Source: a bacterium (GTDB taxonomy: Archaea > Nanobdellota > Nanobdellia > Pacearchaeales > GW2011-AR1). From it: 32,000 bases of DNA. The notes under the pieces are model-generated. The model was not told where the DNA came from. It made no database searches and saw only the letters and a program-made list of their open reading frames with translations. Of the stretch, positions 22,165 to 31,507 are shown one piece after another. Location: NCBI GenBank assembly GCA_036787775.1, contig DAIQOR010000005.1, positions 12,289-44,288 of the forward strand, read 5' to 3'. Numbering within the stretch: the first letter of the stretch is position 1; every line of letters begins with the position of its first letter. Made by a program: the position numbers and the translations under genes.

Positions 22165-22623
22165 TTAGAAAATAGAATTAAACTTAGCAACAAACAAAAA
22201 CAAATCAACAAAAAGAAAAACAACCAAAATTGTAATCTCTGTTCTTCCCCCTGTCCGAACTTTCCAAAAACTTTTTTTCTTCCAAGGATAAAATGGTTTA
22301 ATACCCTCAAGAGTAAAACTATCTGCCAAAAGATGCGAAGCATAACCCACAAAAAAAGGCAAAGCAATAATCGGAAAAAACAAAACAAAAAGCAAAATAA
22401 TTGAAAACAAAAAAGTAAAACTATGAATCATTCCTCGATGATCCGCAATCCACTGCAACGGACGAAAATACCAATGATACCCGATCTTCGAATGCTTCGA
22501 ATCAATGTCGGGAATATAAGTCGCCAACAAAGCCACAACAACAAAAACAATTTTATTATTCACAAAAGAAATTAAACCCAAAACCAAAAACAAAGTTATC
22601 GCGAGATGAGTTTTGATGAGCAT
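22165..22623 (-). CDS. membrane-bound metal-dependent hydrolase, YdjM/DUF457 family
   Basis: 152 aa. It has an N-terminal THLAITL, then PDIDSKHSKIG, HRGMIHS and SHLLADSFT, interleaved with TM segments. Confidence 0.7.
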   Translation of the reverse strand: MLIKTHLAITLFLVLGLISFVNNKIVFVVVALLATYIPDIDSKHSKIGYHWYFRPLQWIADHRGMIHSFTFLFSIILLFVLFFPIIALPFFVGYASHLLADSFTLEGIKPFYPWKKKSFWKVRTGGRTEITILVVFLFVDLFLFVAKFNSIF

Positions 22624-22663: not shown

Positions 22664-22996
22664 CTAACTTTTCAAAAAAGAACAAACTTCATTGAGAATA
22701 TTTGAAAAAGAATTTTTATTTAAACTTCCAATTTTATATTTTATCAAAGATTTTTCTATTGATGCAATTTTATCTATTCTAACAAAACTATCTCTTTTCA
22801 AAGAACCTTTCAAAAAATCTTTTTCTTTAATCAAAACTTCAACAGATTTTTCATAAGAAGATCCTGTTATTTGAAGCACAATTAAATCATCTCCTTTGGG
22901 GCATTTCAAAACCAAAACAGGTCTTCTCTTAACTCCAATTAAATTAGAAAAAGGAAAACTCACAACAAGCAAATCTCCAGCTACAAATCTCTCCAC
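22664..22996 (-). CDS. mazF: MazF/PemK-family type II toxin
   Basis: 110 aa. AGDLLVVSFPFSN....KRRPVLVL ... IVLQITGS ... VRIDKIASIEKSLI matches the PemK fold pattern. It overlaps the upstream antitoxin gene by 16 nt. Confidence 0.75.
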   Translation of the reverse strand: MERFVAGDLLVVSFPFSNLIGVKRRPVLVLKCPKGDDLIVLQITGSSYEKSVEVLIKEKDFLKGSLKRDSFVRIDKIASIEKSLIKYKIGSLNKNSFSNILNEVCSFLKS

Positions 22997-24616: not shown

Positions 24617-27600
24617 TTACAATTCAACATTCTCAAACAAACTTCCCTTCAAACACAAATCACCATCAAAATCAATATAACTCATGTTTGTGAAAGTTGA
24701 ATCTTGAATAATAAAAGCATCTCTTGAAGGATTACACGTCGCTGATTGATCTGAACAATCTCCAGTCACCAAACATAAATCTCCTGTAGAATTAATAAAA
24801 GCTACATTATTGTTTGTTGAATTTCTTATAATAAAACTATCTGCCCCAGGAGAATTACAAGTTCCTCCCGAAAAACAACTTCCTGCTAAAACAATATTTC
24901 CTTCATCTCCAAACCATGCGACAATTTCTCCTAAAGAATTTTTATGAGTGAATTTGTATGTATCGGGTAAAACAAAATTACATGCTAAATCACAATTTCC
25001 AGTTCCCGCAACGATGCCCTCACATCTTGAATCTGCAGTACATCCAGAATCAAATGTACTATTTCTACAAACATTATCTCTATCTTCCCCTCCAGCTACG
25101 GAAGTGCATTTATCTGCAAAATAAGGTTCTCCAGAAAAACAAGTTGTTATATTATCTCCTGTTGTTTTTCCATCACACAAAAATTCGTCACAAGAACAAC
25201 CTGCCTCAGCACATTCAAATACAGAAGTAATATCTTGATAAGAACATGTAGAACTACATTCATCTTCGTAGTAAGAAGTGCCTGAACATAAATTAAGGTC
25301 ATCTCCAGTCTGTCTTTCGTCACAATTTACATGACCCGAACCAATTGAGTATTCACAATAGCTTGTCTCTTGCCCATCAAAATAAGTATTGTAAGGAGTA
25401 AAACACCAACCATCATCTCCCAACCCAACTCCATCATCATCACAATATCCCGAACTACATTGAGAATCACTTATACATGATTGACCATTTGATTTATCAC
25501 TAACACAATCCCAATTTGACCAACTACTACTTTTATCACAATACTGATTCGCAGAACAATCACCATCATCAAAACAATTTAAGACATAAATGGAATTACC
25601 TACCCCATAATTAGGACTAAAAGGATACCACCATATCCAACAAGCCTGTTCAAGGGTATCATCATAACCAAGAATCTCATTGCGATAAGCTGTTCCAGGT
25701 GCAGTAATAGTAACCATCGTATCCTCATCATTTATTTCGTCACAATCACACCCTCCATACTCACAATCATAATCACCATCGCAATCATAATACATCTGCT
25801 GAGCATCAACATCTTTCCACCCTATTTTATATTCATCTATAACATAAGGGTCCCAAGCATCATTTACAGCACCCCATTCAATATCATTAACATTCTCATA
25901 TAAATTTTGAGCGATACTTACATCACAATCTTCATAAGAAGATTCTATACAAAACTCATATCCAGATTCTTCACAATCTTCAACTGGTGCTTCTTCCTCT
26001 TCACAATCCTCATCATAAACACACTGGCTTTCAGTTGCACATACATCGGGAGTACAATCTCTCGTCCATTGCTTTTGACTAGCACTACAACTTCCTCCTC
26101 CACATGAACCTTCTGACCAGCTACTGCAACTACAACTTGTAACATCAACCCATATTGGATTTGTATATGCTCTTCTTCCAGTATCAGTGTAAACTTCAAG
26201 TCTAATATAATCATCACTTGTATCTAAATCTATATCAAAAGAGCCAGAATAAGTGTCATCAGATACAGGGATATAATCATAGAATTGATCATTTAGATAA
26301 ATATAGATATAAGTTATATCACCAAATTCTCCATTACTTGACGCACTGATATCTAAGGTGTTAATTCCTGACATTGCATCAACCACACTTCCAATTATGT
26401 TCCCATCAAGGGTGAATTGCACAAATGGACCTGTAGATGCAATGCAGTGTCCATCTTTATAAGATTCTCTTATCGCACTTGTTGTAAGAGTTTCAGAATC
26501 TAAATAACAATAAGTGAAGGTATGTCCTACCTCGCTAATTTGGTGTGCATCACTTCCTGCTATGCCGACTATAAAACCATTATCGGGATTTGTCTCAGCA
26601 ATAAGTAAATCTTCCCATTGATTAATTGTTTCTTGGTCACCCCCTTCAAAAATCCCATCTTTAGCATTAATAAGTTCCAACCCAGAATATCCTGTAACTG
26701 ACCAGTCTTCCCAATTTAAATAATAAGGGAATCCATCATAGGGATGGGCAATAAAACCAATGCCTCCTGCATTCTCCACCTCATCTATTACATCTTGTGC
26801 ATCACGACAACCACTATTCCAAAACGTACAAGTTCCGTCAATATAACCCAAATTATCATCTGAAGAAGGATGAGTTAAATAATGGGCAGCATCGTTGATT
26901 CCAGGAGCATCAACAGCCATTTCCTGACCATACAAACATTTGAATGATGAAGTGCTGTTTCCAACACATGAATTATATCCTCCATTCCATTCTTCACTAT
27001 CGAGATAGTTGCTATGGTCTGTAAAAATAACCCAATCTAATCCCTCACTAATACTCTCATCAATCATCTCTGATAATGGAACAGATCCATCATAAGCTAT
27101 ATCTGTATGCATATGCTGGTCACCCACGTACCACCCAGGAGAATTGTGTGGGGGCGTTGGTAAAGGCTCTGAAATAAGGATTGTATGATTTATTTCAACG
27201 ATATATTTTTTATGATTATAATAAATTTTAAGTTCTAAAGGAATTATAACTATGTCCCCCACATTTAAGGAATCACTAAAATCATTTATATTCAAATAAA
27301 AAGCTTTTGAAAAACTTTTGAATCTAACTTCGTTTCTTAATCTTTTTAGCTCTAATTTATTTTCTAAAGAGCTCAATTTTAAACTATCTAAGCGATCTAT
27401 TTGCTCTTTAACAGGAAGAATATTTTTATTTATTGTAAATTCTCTTATCTTTTCTTTTTTGGGAGAGATAATTTTTATTTTTTCAATAGAAGCGTTGTCT
27501 TTCCCTAAATTCGTTATTGTAGGTTTTATAATAAAAATATCTCCAGAACGTAGAGCACTTGAACCATCAAGAGTTATATTTAGAAATGAAATTTCCTCTT

Positions 27601-27676
27601 CTGAGTTTTGTGCATAGGTAAGAGGGACAAGTAATATTAAAAATATCAAAATTAATAAAAAATTAGTTTTTATCAT
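24617..27676 (-). CDS. large secreted protein: signal peptide, Ig/CARDB-like domain, PHP (CehA/McbA-like) phosphoesterase domain, beta-rich domain, and a ~500-aa Cys-rich region with a triple C-terminal repeat
   Basis: 1019 aa. Signal peptide: FLLILIFLILLVPLTYA/QN. PHP metal-ligand motifs: WYVGDQHMHT, DWVIFTDHS, GFIAHP and GSDAH. About 46 Cys (hand count) lie after residue ~515. The C-terminus repeats the motif (V/S)(A/Y)(W/F/I)(F/I)(G/N/D)xxG(N/D)(I/L)(V/C)L three times. Confidence 0.7.
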   Translation of the reverse strand: MIKTNFLLILIFLILLVPLTYAQNSEEEISFLNITLDGSSALRSGDIFIIKPTITNLGKDNASIEKIKIISPKKEKIREFTINKNILPVKEQIDRLDSLKLSSLENKLELKRLRNEVRFKSFSKAFYLNINDFSDSLNVGDIVIIPLELKIYYNHKKYIVEINHTILISEPLPTPPHNSPGWYVGDQHMHTDIAYDGSVPLSEMIDESISEGLDWVIFTDHSNYLDSEEWNGGYNSCVGNSTSSFKCLYGQEMAVDAPGINDAAHYLTHPSSDDNLGYIDGTCTFWNSGCRDAQDVIDEVENAGGIGFIAHPYDGFPYYLNWEDWSVTGYSGLELINAKDGIFEGGDQETINQWEDLLIAETNPDNGFIVGIAGSDAHQISEVGHTFTYCYLDSETLTTSAIRESYKDGHCIASTGPFVQFTLDGNIIGSVVDAMSGINTLDISASSNGEFGDITYIYIYLNDQFYDYIPVSDDTYSGSFDIDLDTSDDYIRLEVYTDTGRRAYTNPIWVDVTSCSCSSWSEGSCGGGSCSASQKQWTRDCTPDVCATESQCVYDEDCEEEEAPVEDCEESGYEFCIESSYEDCDVSIAQNLYENVNDIEWGAVNDAWDPYVIDEYKIGWKDVDAQQMYYDCDGDYDCEYGGCDCDEINDEDTMVTITAPGTAYRNEILGYDDTLEQACWIWWYPFSPNYGVGNSIYVLNCFDDGDCSANQYCDKSSSWSNWDCVSDKSNGQSCISDSQCSSGYCDDDGVGLGDDGWCFTPYNTYFDGQETSYCEYSIGSGHVNCDERQTGDDLNLCSGTSYYEDECSSTCSYQDITSVFECAEAGCSCDEFLCDGKTTGDNITTCFSGEPYFADKCTSVAGGEDRDNVCRNSTFDSGCTADSRCEGIVAGTGNCDLACNFVLPDTYKFTHKNSLGEIVAWFGDEGNIVLAGSCFSGGTCNSPGADSFIIRNSTNNNVAFINSTGDLCLVTGDCSDQSATCNPSRDAFIIQDSTFTNMSYIDFDGDLCLKGSLFENVEL

Positions 27677-27977: not shown

Positions 27978-29248
27978 TTATAAAATCTCCGAATGATTCT
28001 CTCCCGATGCTTCAGTATAATGTGCATCACTTCCAGCTGTTCCTCGAATAAAACCATCAGAAGGATTTGTTTCTTCCTCTAAAAATTCAACCCAAGAATC
28101 AGTAACTCCTCCCGGGTTATTTATTGCAAGCGCATCATCTCCACTAAATCCCCCATTAATAATTTCTAATCCCGTAAAACCAGTAAGTGACCAGTTCCAA
28201 TCAAACATATCATTATGAGGATGTGCAACAAATCCTATTCCACCCGCATTAGTTATTTCATTTATAACTACCTGCTCATCATCACGACACTCACATTGAA
28301 ACCATCCACAATATCCATCAACATATCCAAGATCATCATCATCATCAGAACTTGGATGAGCTAAATAATGACGATTTTCCAAAGTATCACACACCAAGGA
28401 ACCTCGCCGATAGACATCTCCTGACCATATAAACATTTGAAAGAACTTGTAGACTCTGAATCACAAGCATCACGCCCATCTTCCCATTCAGATGCTTCTG
28501 AAAAAGCAACACTATGATCTGTAAAAATTATCCAATCCATCTCAGACGCTTTCGCAGCATCCACCATATCATCAAGAGGATCTGGAGTTTCGGCAAGAGT
28601 AGAACCAAACTCACTATGAACATGCTGATCTCCAACATACCAACCAGGAGAATTATGTGGAGGCTTTGGTAACGATTCAGAAAACAAAACCGCCCTTTCT
28701 CTACGAACAACATATTTCTCACCATCAATCTTAAACTCAATGTCAATTGAAATATTAATTAATTCTCCAATCTCCAAAGTATCATCAAAATCTCTTATGT
28801 CTAATCTAAAACTTTTTTTAAAAGTTTCATTTTTAATTTCAGAAATAATTTTTATATATTCTTGATATTCTGGCTGTTCTTCAGTTAATCCAGGAATTTC
28901 ACAAAATTCTGGTTTCTGTAAATAATCTCTTATTTCTTCCTCTCGTTTAAGAATTTTCTTCAAAGATTTAATTTCTTTATTAATATCCTCTGCCTTAATT
29001 ATTTTTTTACCATCGTTTAATATTGTTACTTTTTTAATATCCAGTGTTAAATTTTCATTTAAATTTCTAATTGTTATCGAAGCTGGAAAAATATTCCCTG
29101 TTCTAATTACCGACGAACTATGAAACTCTACAAAGATATCAATATCTTCGCTTGGTTTTGATGCGGAGATCGTGGAAATGTTCAAAACTATAACTAAAAC
29201 AAGAATTGCTATTAAAAAATTTGTGCACTTTCTTTTATTGATTTTCAT
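27978..29248 (-). pseudogene. frameshifted, shorter paralogue of the secreted PHP protein
   Basis: Track ORFs 28361..29248 and 27978..28436 overlap in different frames. Together they align with residues ~1-400 of the 1019-aa protein (PPHNSPGWYVGDQHVHS, DWIIFTDHS, FKCLYGQEMS | HYLAHPSSDD, GGIGFVAHP, GSDAH). The frame change is near 28400 (...GQEMSIGE / GSLVCDTLENRHYLAHP). Confidence 0.65.
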
Positions 29249-30567: not shown

Positions 30568-30618
30568 TATTTAAAAGAGTTCCTATAATTCAAAACAAAA
30601 AACCAACAAATTTATAAA
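30568..30618. promoter_or_regulatory. divergent promoter pair
   Basis: tatttaaaa (about 30568-30576) lies about 24 nt from the minus-strand ATG at 30548. tttataaa (30611-30618) lies about 26 nt upstream of the plus-strand ATG at 30641. Confidence 0.5.
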
Positions 30619-30640
30619 ACTCTTTTTCTTAATTAACTCA

Positions 30641-31507
30641 ATGAAATCAAAAAGAGGTTTTCAAAAAAGATTCTTAGAAATTTTAAACAGCAAGCCGATT
30701 ATAGGATTATTTATTTTTTTAATTCTTGGCATAGCAATGGTCGTCGCTGGTGATGTTGTTGTTAAAGAGGGCGATATGGATATTAATAACGGACTAATCG
30801 TAAATGATATATTATATGTTAACACTACCAATAATAATGTGGGAATAGGAACAAATTCTCCCCTTAGTGGAATTAAATTGGATATTGATGGTCAAACGAG
30901 ATCAAAAAATTCAATATTGTGGAGCCCTTCTGCATCAGGCTGGGTAGCTCAACTAAAATTTATGACAATGGATGGACTCTCAACTCATCATGTATTTTTT
31001 ATAGATAGGGGAGATAATGATAGATTAAATTTAGATTTGAATCGGAATGGAACTTCAGAAGATATAATGAGAATTAGAGGAGGAATTGATATAGATGATA
31101 GTTTAACAATTGATAATTATTTAGGAGTTGGTTTAACAAATCCAAATCAATCAGTAGATGTAAATGGAAATGTTCAAGCATTGGATTTTATAACTATATC
31201 AGACAGAGAACAAAAAGATAATATTAAAGAATTAAATGTCAACGAAGTTTTTTCATCAACACCAAAACTTTATGAATATCAATTCAAAAAACAAGTTCCG
31301 GTTTATGACGAAGATGAAGAAAATGTATTAAGTTACACAACCGAATTAATGCCTCCTCAAGTTGGATTGATGATGGATGAAGTTCCAGAAGAATGCAGGA
31401 AAGGAAAAGGTGTTGATAATTATTGCATGCTTTCTTTGGCTTACACACAAATAATAAGTTTACAAAACGAACTTTGTACAAAAGATAATTCTTATAGTTG
31501 GTGTTGA
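30641..31507 (+). CDS. membrane-anchored tail-fibre-like protein with a C-terminal S74 intramolecular-chaperone (endosialidase chaperone) domain
   Basis: 288 aa with an N-terminal TM segment (IIGLFIFLILGIAMVVAG). NNNVGIGTNSPLSGIKLDIDGQ and LGVGLTNPNQSVDVNGN match the (V)GIGT..P...LDV.G fibre repeat. ISDREQKDNIKEL...LYEYQFK...VGLMMDEVPEE...LSLAYTQIISLQNEL matches the SD.R.K.NI ... Y.y ... GliAqEv ... peptidase S74 pattern. Confidence 0.65.
   Translation: MKSKRGFQKRFLEILNSKPIIGLFIFLILGIAMVVAGDVVVKEGDMDINNGLIVNDILYVNTTNNNVGIGTNSPLSGIKLDIDGQTRSKNSILWSPSASGWVAQLKFMTMDGLSTHHVFFIDRGDNDRLNLDLNRNGTSEDIMRIRGGIDIDDSLTIDNYLGVGLTNPNQSVDVNGNVQALDFITISDREQKDNIKELNVNEVFSSTPKLYEYQFKKQVPVYDEDEENVLSYTTELMPPQVGLMMDEVPEECRKGKGVDNYCMLSLAYTQIISLQNELCTKDNSYSWC

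Follow-up and report, generated by a model that had tools for sequence, protein, structure and literature searches.

Monomer-on-trimer adaptors are exemplified by the PAAR protein, which caps the trimeric spike of VgrG, and by phages T2 and S16, whose gp38 adhesin sits on a trimeric fibre of gp37; PAAR proteins possess three internal repeats and occur as fusions with a wide range of cargo, RHS toxins among them. In the mosaic adhesive trimeric (MAT) fibres of Bdellovibrio bacteriovorus, members of the S74 subgroup, e.g. Bd3182, have a leader and behind it an N-terminal segment that is conserved, together with V-G-x-G-x-x-P-x-x-x-L loops, the motif SDxxxK and a chaperone domain of the Peptidase_S74 type (PMC10769870).

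Little is known about how DPANN archaea recognize, hold on to and exploit other cells, and most of their large surface proteins are unannotated. The protein under study, a CehA/McbA-type PHP hydrolase with a long Cys-rich tail, is encoded by a tiny DPANN archaeon within an analysed stretch of DNA of 32,000 nucleotides (hereafter the window; Table 1). Its tail ends in a C-terminal domain (CTD) that we found, in a new association, to be tied by gene order to a gene for a MAT-like fibre. Like PAAR and gp38, the CTD is a single polypeptide that would dock on a homotrimer and whose gene adjoins a fibre or spike gene, and like PAAR it has three repeats and diverse cargo; unlike both, it has no sequence or fold match to either, its docking being deduced solely from gene order, and unlike PAAR it belongs to an archaeon without a type VI system and is placed at the C-terminus of its cargo. 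The archaeal fibre proteins in turn share the leader, N-terminal segment, loops, SDxxxK motif and S74 domain with the MAT fibres, from which they differ by being far shorter (176-517 aa) and by a conserved LCxKDxSYSWC end loop. They are also paired with an upstream CTD gene, a pairing that the part of PMC10769870 covered here does not mention for MAT fibres.

Table 1. Features of the PHP protein and of the candidate fibre gene, with their positions in the window
Feature	Residues	Position	Strand	Basis
Secreted CehA/McbA-type PHP hydrolase ORF	1019 aa	24617..27676	(-)	
Probable Sec signal peptide, MIKTNFLLILIFLILLVPLTYA/QN	1-22	27611..27676	(-)	read from translation
CehA/McbA-family PHP metallohydrolase domain, enzymatic head	181-511	26144..27136	(-)	NCBIfam NF038032 and Pfam PHP
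Module A, 8-Cys knot, CxCxxWxxGxCGxGxC...RxCxPxxC...C	515-558	26003..26134	(-)	alignments and AF2
Module B, beta-sandwich, behind short acidic linker	~565-690	25607..25984	(-)	AF2
Module C, 24-Cys block	700-904	24965..25579	(-)	Pfam, invariant columns and co-loss
Dickkopf_N-like unit opening module C	701-744	25445-25576	(-)	Pfam Dickkopf_N PF04706
CTD, 115-aa three-repeat all-beta domain	905-1019	24620..24964	(-)	AF2 and repeat profiles
CTD repeats	~906-944, 945-985, 986-1019	~24845-24955, 24722-24844, 24620-24721	(-)	
Candidate partner, MAT-like tail-fibre protein		30641..31507	(+)	gene adjacency in other loci, motifs, PHROG

Enzyme head and modules of the Cys-rich tail

The N-terminus of the PHP protein is a probable Sec signal peptide, its translation displaying a short charged N-region, then hydrophobic residues as the core and, for cleavage, a motif of small residues. 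The enzymatic head was matched over the full length of NF038032 (profile 1-315/315, 138.2 bits against a cut-off of 80, E = 3.9e-40), which makes it a member of that family, and by Pfam PHP (32.3 bits). The Cys-rich tail (residues 515-1019, 505 aa) starts after ...WVDVTS and contains 46 Cys (9.1%), exactly the number that the earlier note had estimated for the C-terminal half. The N-terminal 514 residues contain 6 Cys, and the mean Cys content of the 25 other ORFs of the window is 1.07% (binomial P ~9e-28 for the enrichment in the tail). Asp and Glu together account for 19% of the tail residues, and Lys and Arg for only 3.6%. A frameshifted paralogue (27978-28436 and 28361-29248) could be aligned to residues 34-384 only, which indicates that it lacks the whole Cys-rich region, as previously proposed.

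Residues 515-1019 are four separable, autonomous modules (A, B, C and the CTD) and not low-complexity sequence, and the Cys count of every one of them is even (8, 8, 24 and 6, respectively). In alignments of homologues, residues 515-558, ~560-904 and 905-1019 separate as independent units, and what had been an anonymous Cys-rich tail of 500 residues is now a set of defined, searchable modules. Module A recurs alone after S8, C1 and beta-helix domains (alignments of residues 515-558) and was modelled by AF2 as three short strands (pLDDT ~75-81); a suspected resemblance to the thrombospondin type 1 repeat found no support in Pfam. AF2 placed the predicted strands of module B at model residues 66-174 (pLDDT mostly 75-93, with one disordered loop), and Foldseek of the 400-aa middle-region model (pLDDT 76.4) returned weak Ig-like or beta-sandwich fold matches only, with no solved-structure match for module C. 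A comparison of the 507-aa region with PDB sequences gave chance matches only, to bL31 (E ~0.6).

Module C possesses 29 invariant columns, chiefly Cys and Asp, and is present as a tandem repeat in one protein (P0011). Its opening unit was matched by Dickkopf_N in the window protein (20.7-22.3 bits, below the gathering threshold of 25; E = 1.6e-4) and in 23 of 34 homologues at E<=1 (best E = 7.4e-6). Like Dickkopf_N, colipase-type disulfide knots and other small Cys-rich extracellular modules, module C has dense, conserved and paired Cys in an extracellular setting; unlike Dickkopf_N, the unit sits inside a 205-residue block of 24 Cys, its host is archaeal and not eukaryotic, and the score of its window copy, 22.3 bits, stays below 25.

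In Woese-, Pace- and Nanoarchaeota, the modules behave as cassettes that are shuffled between enzymes that are secreted and proteins that resemble toxins. Their carriers otherwise bear PF00082, PF00112, PF13229/PF05048, PF13385, PF05593/PF12256/PF25023, PF00092 or PF24517, the cargo comprising S8 and C1 peptidases, beta-helix, LamG, VWA and RHS/TcB-like proteins. As >100 protein clusters contain the middle region and ~1300 contain the CTD, the earlier statement that dense Cys is unusual for archaeal surface proteins does not hold within this clade.

Conservation among homologues was 81% at Cys positions versus 50% at other positions; neither the lack of conservation of Cys and terminal repeats nor the complete disorder that would have spoken against the earlier note was encountered, the Cys and the repeats being conserved and the region predicted to be folded. 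Cys 632 and 645 are both present in 6 cases and both absent in 35 with zero exceptions, Cys 785 and 807 are lost jointly (8/8), and further co-lost pairs were found in module C (811-829 and 713-724), module B (576-584), module A (517-541 and 552-558) and the CTD (934-974 and 940-968, with 981-1008 as the remaining pair), and in 28 homologues the CTD is devoid of all six Cys. This gain and loss in pairs favours disulfides over metal sites, and the even number, conservation and pairwise covariation of the Cys are those of disulfide-rich extracellular modules in general. Judged by these sequence features, the tail is probably a chain of disulfide-braced, reusable surface modules. The disulfide- or metal-stabilised extracellular stalk or adhesin on the enzyme that the earlier note had envisaged withstood each of the tests applied and gains support from the putative Sec signal, the pairwise-covarying conserved Cys and the occurrence of autonomous modules on many secreted proteins.

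The metal version of this stalk, in which its Cys would coordinate Zn, Fe or Cu and the metal would either stabilise the surface module or be bound by it, as would suit anoxic groundwater, seems improbable to us. It would be in keeping with the very acidic tail and with the MopE-type 'putative metal-binding motif' (PF11617) that replaces module A in some homologues, as well as with the failure to find clear signs of Dsb or VKOR in this genome (91% complete), in which VKOR was not detected and the sole DsbA-like ORF is sub-threshold (21 bits) and broken by an assembly gap (Ns). However, the Cys change strictly by pairs and never in threes or fours, their count is even in each module, the near lack of His (0.4%) leaves few to complete metal sites, and the Dickkopf_N-like unit is from a disulfide-knot family.

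The three-repeat CTD

AF2 models the CTD as a compact domain made entirely of beta structure (pLDDT 94.6, pTM 0.87). Profiles of its repeats from 71 homologues matched each other in hhalign with probabilities of 97.5-98.9% (E = 6e-12 to 3e-17), confirming that the three terminal copies noticed earlier are real homologous units, with lengths of 34-41 aa in place of the ~35 aa first given. A search with the CTD profile retrieved 1301 representative clusters, and the CTD is accordingly widespread. It ends <=8 residues from the protein end in 177 of 187 proteins and is doubled in tandem in 12 proteins, and internal CTDs also occur. In the phylum sample, CTD genes were found in 44 of 401 genomes with a patchy distribution and 1-4 copies per genome.

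The CTD matched no family in Pfam, NCBIfam or PHROG and no PDB entry, and Foldseek of its model against PDB and BFVD gave nothing at E<=0.001 (best TM-score against PDB ~0.25, with no lectin among the 50 matches listed). RHS/teneurin shells and phage fibres occupied the top Foldseek rows and were dismissed as relatives at a TM-score of only ~0.2; PAAR had no Pfam match to the CTD, and no PAAR structure was among the fold matches listed. Like SLH, CWB2 and the beta-prism II bulb-type lectin, the CTD combines about three tandem repeats into one terminal domain carried by unrelated secreted proteins, and it shares a short 'DGNLVL'-like motif with B_lectin. Unlike these domains, it stays below the Pfam thresholds, and no beta-prism, SLH or CWB2 structure was among its fold or sequence matches listed. 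QxDxNxVxY is the sugar-binding motif of bulb-type lectins (beta-prism II), and this motif is missing from the CTD consensus. Assignment of the CTD to B_lectin (PF01453) was rejected, 5 of 71 members being matched (best E = 0.0034) and the match inspected covering 20 residues only and scoring 14.5 bits where the cut-off is 32.4. An NHL or beta-propeller identity was also discarded: the best match (Brat NHL, PDB sequences, E = 0.0077) spans two repeats and the CTD has three only, and closure of a beta-propeller usually takes six blades. No account of the CTD was encountered in literature searches on DPANN surface proteins that are Cys-rich or linked to fibres, and PMC13607799, PMC11329633 and PMC11537232 proved irrelevant.

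The neighbouring fibre gene and the role of the CTD

At its N-terminus the fibre protein of the window has a leader or an anchor, and at its C-terminus an LCxKDxSYSWC loop; it also possesses VGIGTxxPxxxL loops and the S74 motif SDxxxK. In this copy, ISDREQK and VGIGTNSPLSGIKL are present and no Pfam match was obtained, and it matched a tail protein in PHROG (E = 4e-7). Peptidase_S74 (PF13884, cut-off 22) scored 31.9 bits in one homologue (L008) and 17.4 bits in another (L009). The fibre proteins are of the S74 type wherever the C-terminal domain is recognisable, and the candidate partner combines the S74 domain, the SDxxxK motif and the loops of the MAT/S74 group.

In 17 distinct verified loci, the fibre gene lies immediately downstream of the CTD gene (18-175 nt), and the upstream cargo varies. 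A single-sequence CTD scan yielded 11 loci in named genomes, 9 of them with the fibre gene 18-73 nt downstream of the CTD, and 9 of the 12 strongest fibre N-module matches in the 401-genome sample sit <=100 nt downstream of a CTD. In the phylum sample, no recognisable fibre gene directly follows the CTD at roughly every second strong CTD locus, and in the window the fibre gene does not follow the CTD gene either, being located on the opposite strand ~3 kb off. No CTD-fibre fusion was present among 228 proteins. The fibre gene is the only recurrent neighbour in CTD flanks, which contain no co-occurring machinery gene otherwise. This recurrent adjacency suggests that the CTD couples enzymes and toxins to cell-contact fibres. 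Within genomes, the identities of CTDs and of fibre N-modules (93/100, 87/90 and 37/37%) track each other; both this match and the Mantel r of 0.51 are possible without protein contact since adjacent genes are co-inherited.

We regard the tail as a secreted modular stalk with a terminal coupling domain, a reading in which we place about as much belief as doubt. Disulfides between the paired Cys would produce a rigid, protease-resistant spacer keeping the PHP hydrolase off the cell, and the CTD monomer with its three equivalent repeats would dock on a homotrimeric fibre, most probably at the conserved N-terminal segment of the latter, whereby enzymes, proteases or RHS-type toxins would ride on a fibre for cell contact, the variable tip of which would recognise another cell. 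More tentatively, and with doubt prevailing, the CTD may be a single-chain pseudo-threefold adaptor on a homotrimeric, self-cleaving MAT-like fibre, in an undescribed archaeal 'cargo-on-a-fibre' system by which ultra-small DPANN archaea would present interchangeable PHP hydrolases, S8/C1 peptidases and RHS/TcB-like toxins at cell contact; it would then be a functional analogue of PAAR-VgrG or gp38-gp37 with an unrelated, unclassified fold. Docking of cargo on fibres would explain why one end domain is common to unrelated proteases, hydrolases and toxin-like proteins, and the CTD would offer a simple handle in metagenomes on the contact-dependent effector repertoire of DPANN archaea. The terminal repeats had earlier been put forward as a possible binding or anchoring module; the module part stands, as a single beta domain that is predicted with confidence, terminates almost all of its proteins and has a candidate partner, and the binding part stays conjectural.

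Alternatively, the CTD could be a stand-alone lectin-like adhesin for the cell's own S-layer or glycans or for a host surface, with the fibre independent and merely co-regulated, which we consider unlikely but worth weighing. Three equivalent repeats are a typical trait of lectins and of wall-binding modules, the tandem double CTDs would suit avidity, the low copy number and patchy spread are as in accessory adhesins, and there are short motif-level matches to B_lectin and to NHL blades (E = 0.008); but the B_lectin match is just 20 residues long and far under its cut-off, Foldseek listed no lectin fold among its matches, and a free lectin would leave unexplained both the extreme C-terminal placement in 95% of proteins and the regularly following fibre subfamily. 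It is very doubtful that the CTD serves as a tag for secretion or sorting or as a pro-domain to be removed, in the manner of the type IX secretion CTD or of the PPC domains found on secreted peptidases, and is read by machinery for export or attachment, perhaps with subsequent cleavage. With type IX CTDs it shares the strict position at the extreme C-terminus of widely differing proteins, many S8 and C1 peptidases among them; unlike them, it marks few proteins per genome and is accompanied by no recurrent gene other than that of the fibre. A general signal would mark many proteins and not one to four in a minority of genomes, tandem and internal copies do not fit such a tag, the cargo already has Sec-type signal peptides, the flanks lack a machinery gene besides the fibre, and we know of no outer membrane that archaea of this kind would have to cross.

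The proposed link of the CTD to a fibre is favoured by the two clusters of this genome, which are diverged elsewhere. The 327-nt CTD cassette of the PHP gene has 96.3% nucleotide identity to a second gene on another contig (C8), on which a duplicate of the fibre gene is 99.7% identical. Apart from these two segments, the clusters share only one stretch of 67% identity, and their PHP paralogues are 33% identical at the protein level.

Modular anatomy of the 1019-aa protein

The 1019-aa ORF lies next to archaeal housekeeping genes (for RadA, an RPA-like OB-fold protein and aEF-1beta) on a 755-kb genome that is 91% complete and whose close relatives carry the labels Pacearchaeota, Woesearchaeota or Nanoarchaeota. 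Its N-terminal half comprises, in this order, a probable signal peptide, a ~155-aa region without assignment and a CehA/McbA-type PHP metallohydrolase. The earlier note had described the remainder as acidic and rich in Cys, with about 46 of them; exactly 46 Cys (9.1%) were counted in the last 505 residues, after WVDVTS, compared with an average of 1.07% in 25 other ORFs of the window (binomial P ~9e-28), together with 12% Asp, 7% Glu, only 3.6% Lys+Arg and 0.4% His. The frameshifted upstream paralogue was likewise correctly said to lack this region, its alignment being limited to residues 34-384. The three terminal units reported there are homologous, since hhalign, comparing profiles of residues 906-944, 945-985 and 986-1019 two at a time, gave probabilities of 97.5-98.9%, but their length, given as about 35 aa, is 34-41 residues. 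Two genes between those for RadA and the RPA-like protein, a MazF/PemK-like toxin ORF (PF02452, E 3e-10) and one for a YdjM-family membrane protein, look ordinary and unrelated to the findings below.

A search with residues 515-1019 alone yielded 113 protein clusters. Their local alignments show several separable units rather than one: the 8-Cys knot (module A), which is also present by itself downstream of S8, C1 and beta-helix domains; modules B and C (about 560-904), which travel together in many S8 peptidases, PHP and LamG proteins; and the C-terminal domain (CTD, 905-1019), which stands by itself at the end of proteins otherwise without resemblance to the 1019-aa protein. Tandem copies of module C (700-904) exist, for example in homologue P0011. 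The tail is modular, made of units that move between secreted proteins. An AlphaFold2 model of residues 510-909, built on a 34-sequence alignment (mean pLDDT 76.4), predicts three short strands for module A, a beta-sandwich for module B (about 565-690) and a compact module C of low secondary structure. At the start of module C is a Dickkopf_N-like unit (701-744), which stays below threshold in the window protein but is matched by 23 of the 34 homologues. Neither sequence search nor fold search returned a solved relative of this middle region.

Coordinates of the features discussed (G000, the genome carrying the window; G256, a second genome; L numbers, fetched loci)
Feature	Location	Strand	Remark
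1019-aa ORF	window 24617-27676	-	PHP hydrolase and Cys-rich tail
CehA/McbA-type PHP metallohydrolase	residues 181-511		NF038032, 138 bits
Module A	residues 515-558		8-Cys knot
Fibre gene homologue	window 30641-31507	+	PHROG tail match
Duplicated fibre gene and upstream 44 nt	window 30597-31507; G000 contig C8 11361-12271 (L016/L017)
Second surface cluster	G000 contig C8 3460-11296 (L016)	-
G256 CTD-fibre pairs	L020, L021, contigs C2 and C6		pairs 37% identical to each other
Giant SpvB/RHS-CTD proteins	L006 430-6363; L012 385-6348		TcB/TcC-like shell; each followed by a fibre gene
DsbA/Thioredoxin_4-like ORF	L014 1390-2019 (G000 contig C2 about 69.6-70.2 kb)		sub-threshold match
MazF/PemK-like toxin ORF and YdjM-family membrane protein	window 22664-22996 and 22165-22623	both -

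Linkage of CTD genes to MAT-like fibre genes

AlphaFold2 modelling of the CTD on a 71-sequence alignment confidently predicted a terminal three-repeat domain, all-beta, each repeat having three or four strands (pLDDT 94.6, pTM 0.87). Foldseek comparison of this model with the PDB and viral models gave nothing significant, and the family is absent from Pfam, NCBIfam and PHROGs. Assignment to B_lectin or to NHL blades was considered and rejected, the likeness being weak, at the level of motifs, and failing as membership. When 1.84 billion representative proteins were searched with a profile of the CTD, 1301 clusters matched at E<=1e-3 and 777 at the stricter E<=1e-10. Of 187 proteins that have the whole domain, 177 stop no more than 8 residues beyond it, and two tandem copies are present in 12. 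It occurs in 44 genomes of a 401-genome phylum sample, all 44 of the same class, with 1-4 matches per CTD-bearing genome, and the ORFs concerned are often very long. The named relatives belong to Pace-, Woese- or Nanoarchaeota except for one labelled just 'archaeon' and one MAG labelled 'bacterium'. The latter (L010, JAUUWR010000018.1) has a C1-peptidase-CTD gene and a fibre gene typical of the archaeal loci, and probably its label is wrong or its bin mixed.

CTD genes are linked to MAT-like fibre genes, which are S74-type where the domain is recognisable. Clustering of the ORFs flanking 11 named CTD loci defined one recurrent neighbour family; in 9 of these loci a member lies directly downstream in the same orientation, with gaps of 18-73 nt. 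Common to the encoded proteins (176-517 aa) are a charged N-terminus, a hydrophobic segment that ends with AG(D/N)VIVKEG, and VGIGTxxPxxxL motifs; many also have SDxxxK and, at the C-terminus, LCxKDxSYSWC. The same motifs have been described for the Bdellovibrio MAT fibres (PMC10769870). One homologue passed the Pfam Peptidase_S74 threshold (31.9 bits), and the window copy matches phage tail PHROGs (E 4e-7). In five further multi-CTD genomes, a fibre gene lies <=400 nt downstream of six CTD matches and <=3.5 kb downstream of three more. When the 401-genome sample was searched with a profile of the N-terminal 80 residues of the fibre (N-module), 9 of the 12 strongest full-length matches outside the window genome were found <=100 nt downstream of a CTD. 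Altogether, 17 distinct adjacent pairs were verified by six-frame HMM searches of fetched DNA, and their upstream cargo varies (S8 peptidase with beta-helix, C1 peptidase, SpvB/TcdB_midN/FG-GAP/RHS architectures). Some Pace- and Woesearchaeota MAGs encode giant proteins of ~1980 aa with SpvB, TcdB_toxin_midN, FG-GAP and RHS repeats and the CTD at the very end. Neither the CTD nor its pairing with a fibre gene was found in Pfam, NCBIfam, PHROGs, the PDB or the literature searched; as general types, modular surface proteins rich in Cys and terminal binding domains of three repeats are already known.

Paired elements within single genomes

The window genome has two CTD genes, the second on contig C8 encoding a 914-aa protein, unrelated outside the CTD, in which the CTD is internal and a tail of 138 aa, containing 4 Cys, comes after it. 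Both genes are the most distant members of a minus-strand cluster whose head faces a divergently oriented fibre gene copy. The 327-nt CTD cassette is 96.3% identical and gap-free between the two genes, and over 911 nt, 44 of them upstream of the gene, the fibre copies are 99.7% identical. Elsewhere the clusters are unrelated or have diverged much further (33% protein identity between the PHP paralogues, 67% nucleotide identity in one Cys-rich stretch). The C8 cluster also encodes membrane or secreted proteins of 191 and 189 aa, a protein of 488 aa whose Big_9 (Ig-like) match is weak and borderline, and an 813-aa PHP paralogue, which has MopE and Dickkopf_N-like units without a CTD. Thus, although cassette and fibre gene are 5-7 kb apart in this genome, exactly the two elements linked elsewhere have been kept almost identical. 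In two other genomes with two pairs each, CTD and fibre N-module identities match (87/90% and 37/37%), and the two G256 pairs may represent two specificity classes. CTD and fibre distance matrices correlate over 19 pairs (Mantel r 0.51), to which we give little weight because common descent and joint inheritance of neighbouring genes can yield such a value.

Cysteine pairing and a model for the tail

The Cys of the 1019-aa protein are 81% conserved on average across homologues versus 50% at other positions, every tail module has an even number of them, and they co-vary pairwise. Cys 632 and 645 are both present in 6 and both absent in 35 homologues with zero exceptions, 785 and 807 are lost jointly in 8 of 8 cases, and 811-829, 713-724, 576-584, 552-558 and 517-541 behave likewise, with smaller counts. 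All six CTD Cys are present in 158 of 205 domains and none in 28, which represent a Cys-free variant (GNxxLKGTLxQN...) with all six replaced together, as in P0005, P0007, P0013, P0063 (two such CTDs in tandem) and P0064. Partial patterns involve loss of 934+974 (6 domains) or 940+968 (2 domains), leaving 981-1008 as the third pair; two of the three pairs are equivalent under the repeat symmetry, each combining the Cys that follows one repeat with the 'DLC' Cys of the next. Such pairwise gain and loss is the pattern predicted for disulfides, which we infer the tail Cys to form; that they instead bind metal is improbable, since three- or four-ligand sites would be gained and lost as sets. A caveat to the disulfide reading is that no VKOR was found in the 91%-complete genome, and the sole DsbA-like ORF scores about 21 bits, below the cut-off, with the N-terminal part expected to hold its CxxC site falling in an assembly gap (a run of N).

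In the model we favour, the Cys-rich modules would form a disulfide-braced, protease-resistant spacer, and the CTD would link the cargo to the trimeric fibre by contacting its N-terminal segment. Mutual contact is the most economical model because the CTD and this segment are conserved while the rest of both proteins varies. PAAR sits on VgrG at the threefold axis, and a CTD monomer of three equivalent repeats would be similarly suited, geometrically, to such an axis. We regard this docking model in total as about evenly balanced between right and wrong, its stalk part being much more secure than its docking part. That the CTD is instead a free lectin or adhesin seems possible but unlikely, and a sorting tag or pro-domain is very improbable given the low CTD copy number per genome and the existence of tandem and internal copies.

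N-x-S/T sequons number about 4.5 per CTD in the domain alignment versus 2.3 expected from shuffled sequence, several at fixed columns (up to 55 of 71 sequences), a hint of N-glycosylation or of Asn and Ser/Thr residues with a structural role.
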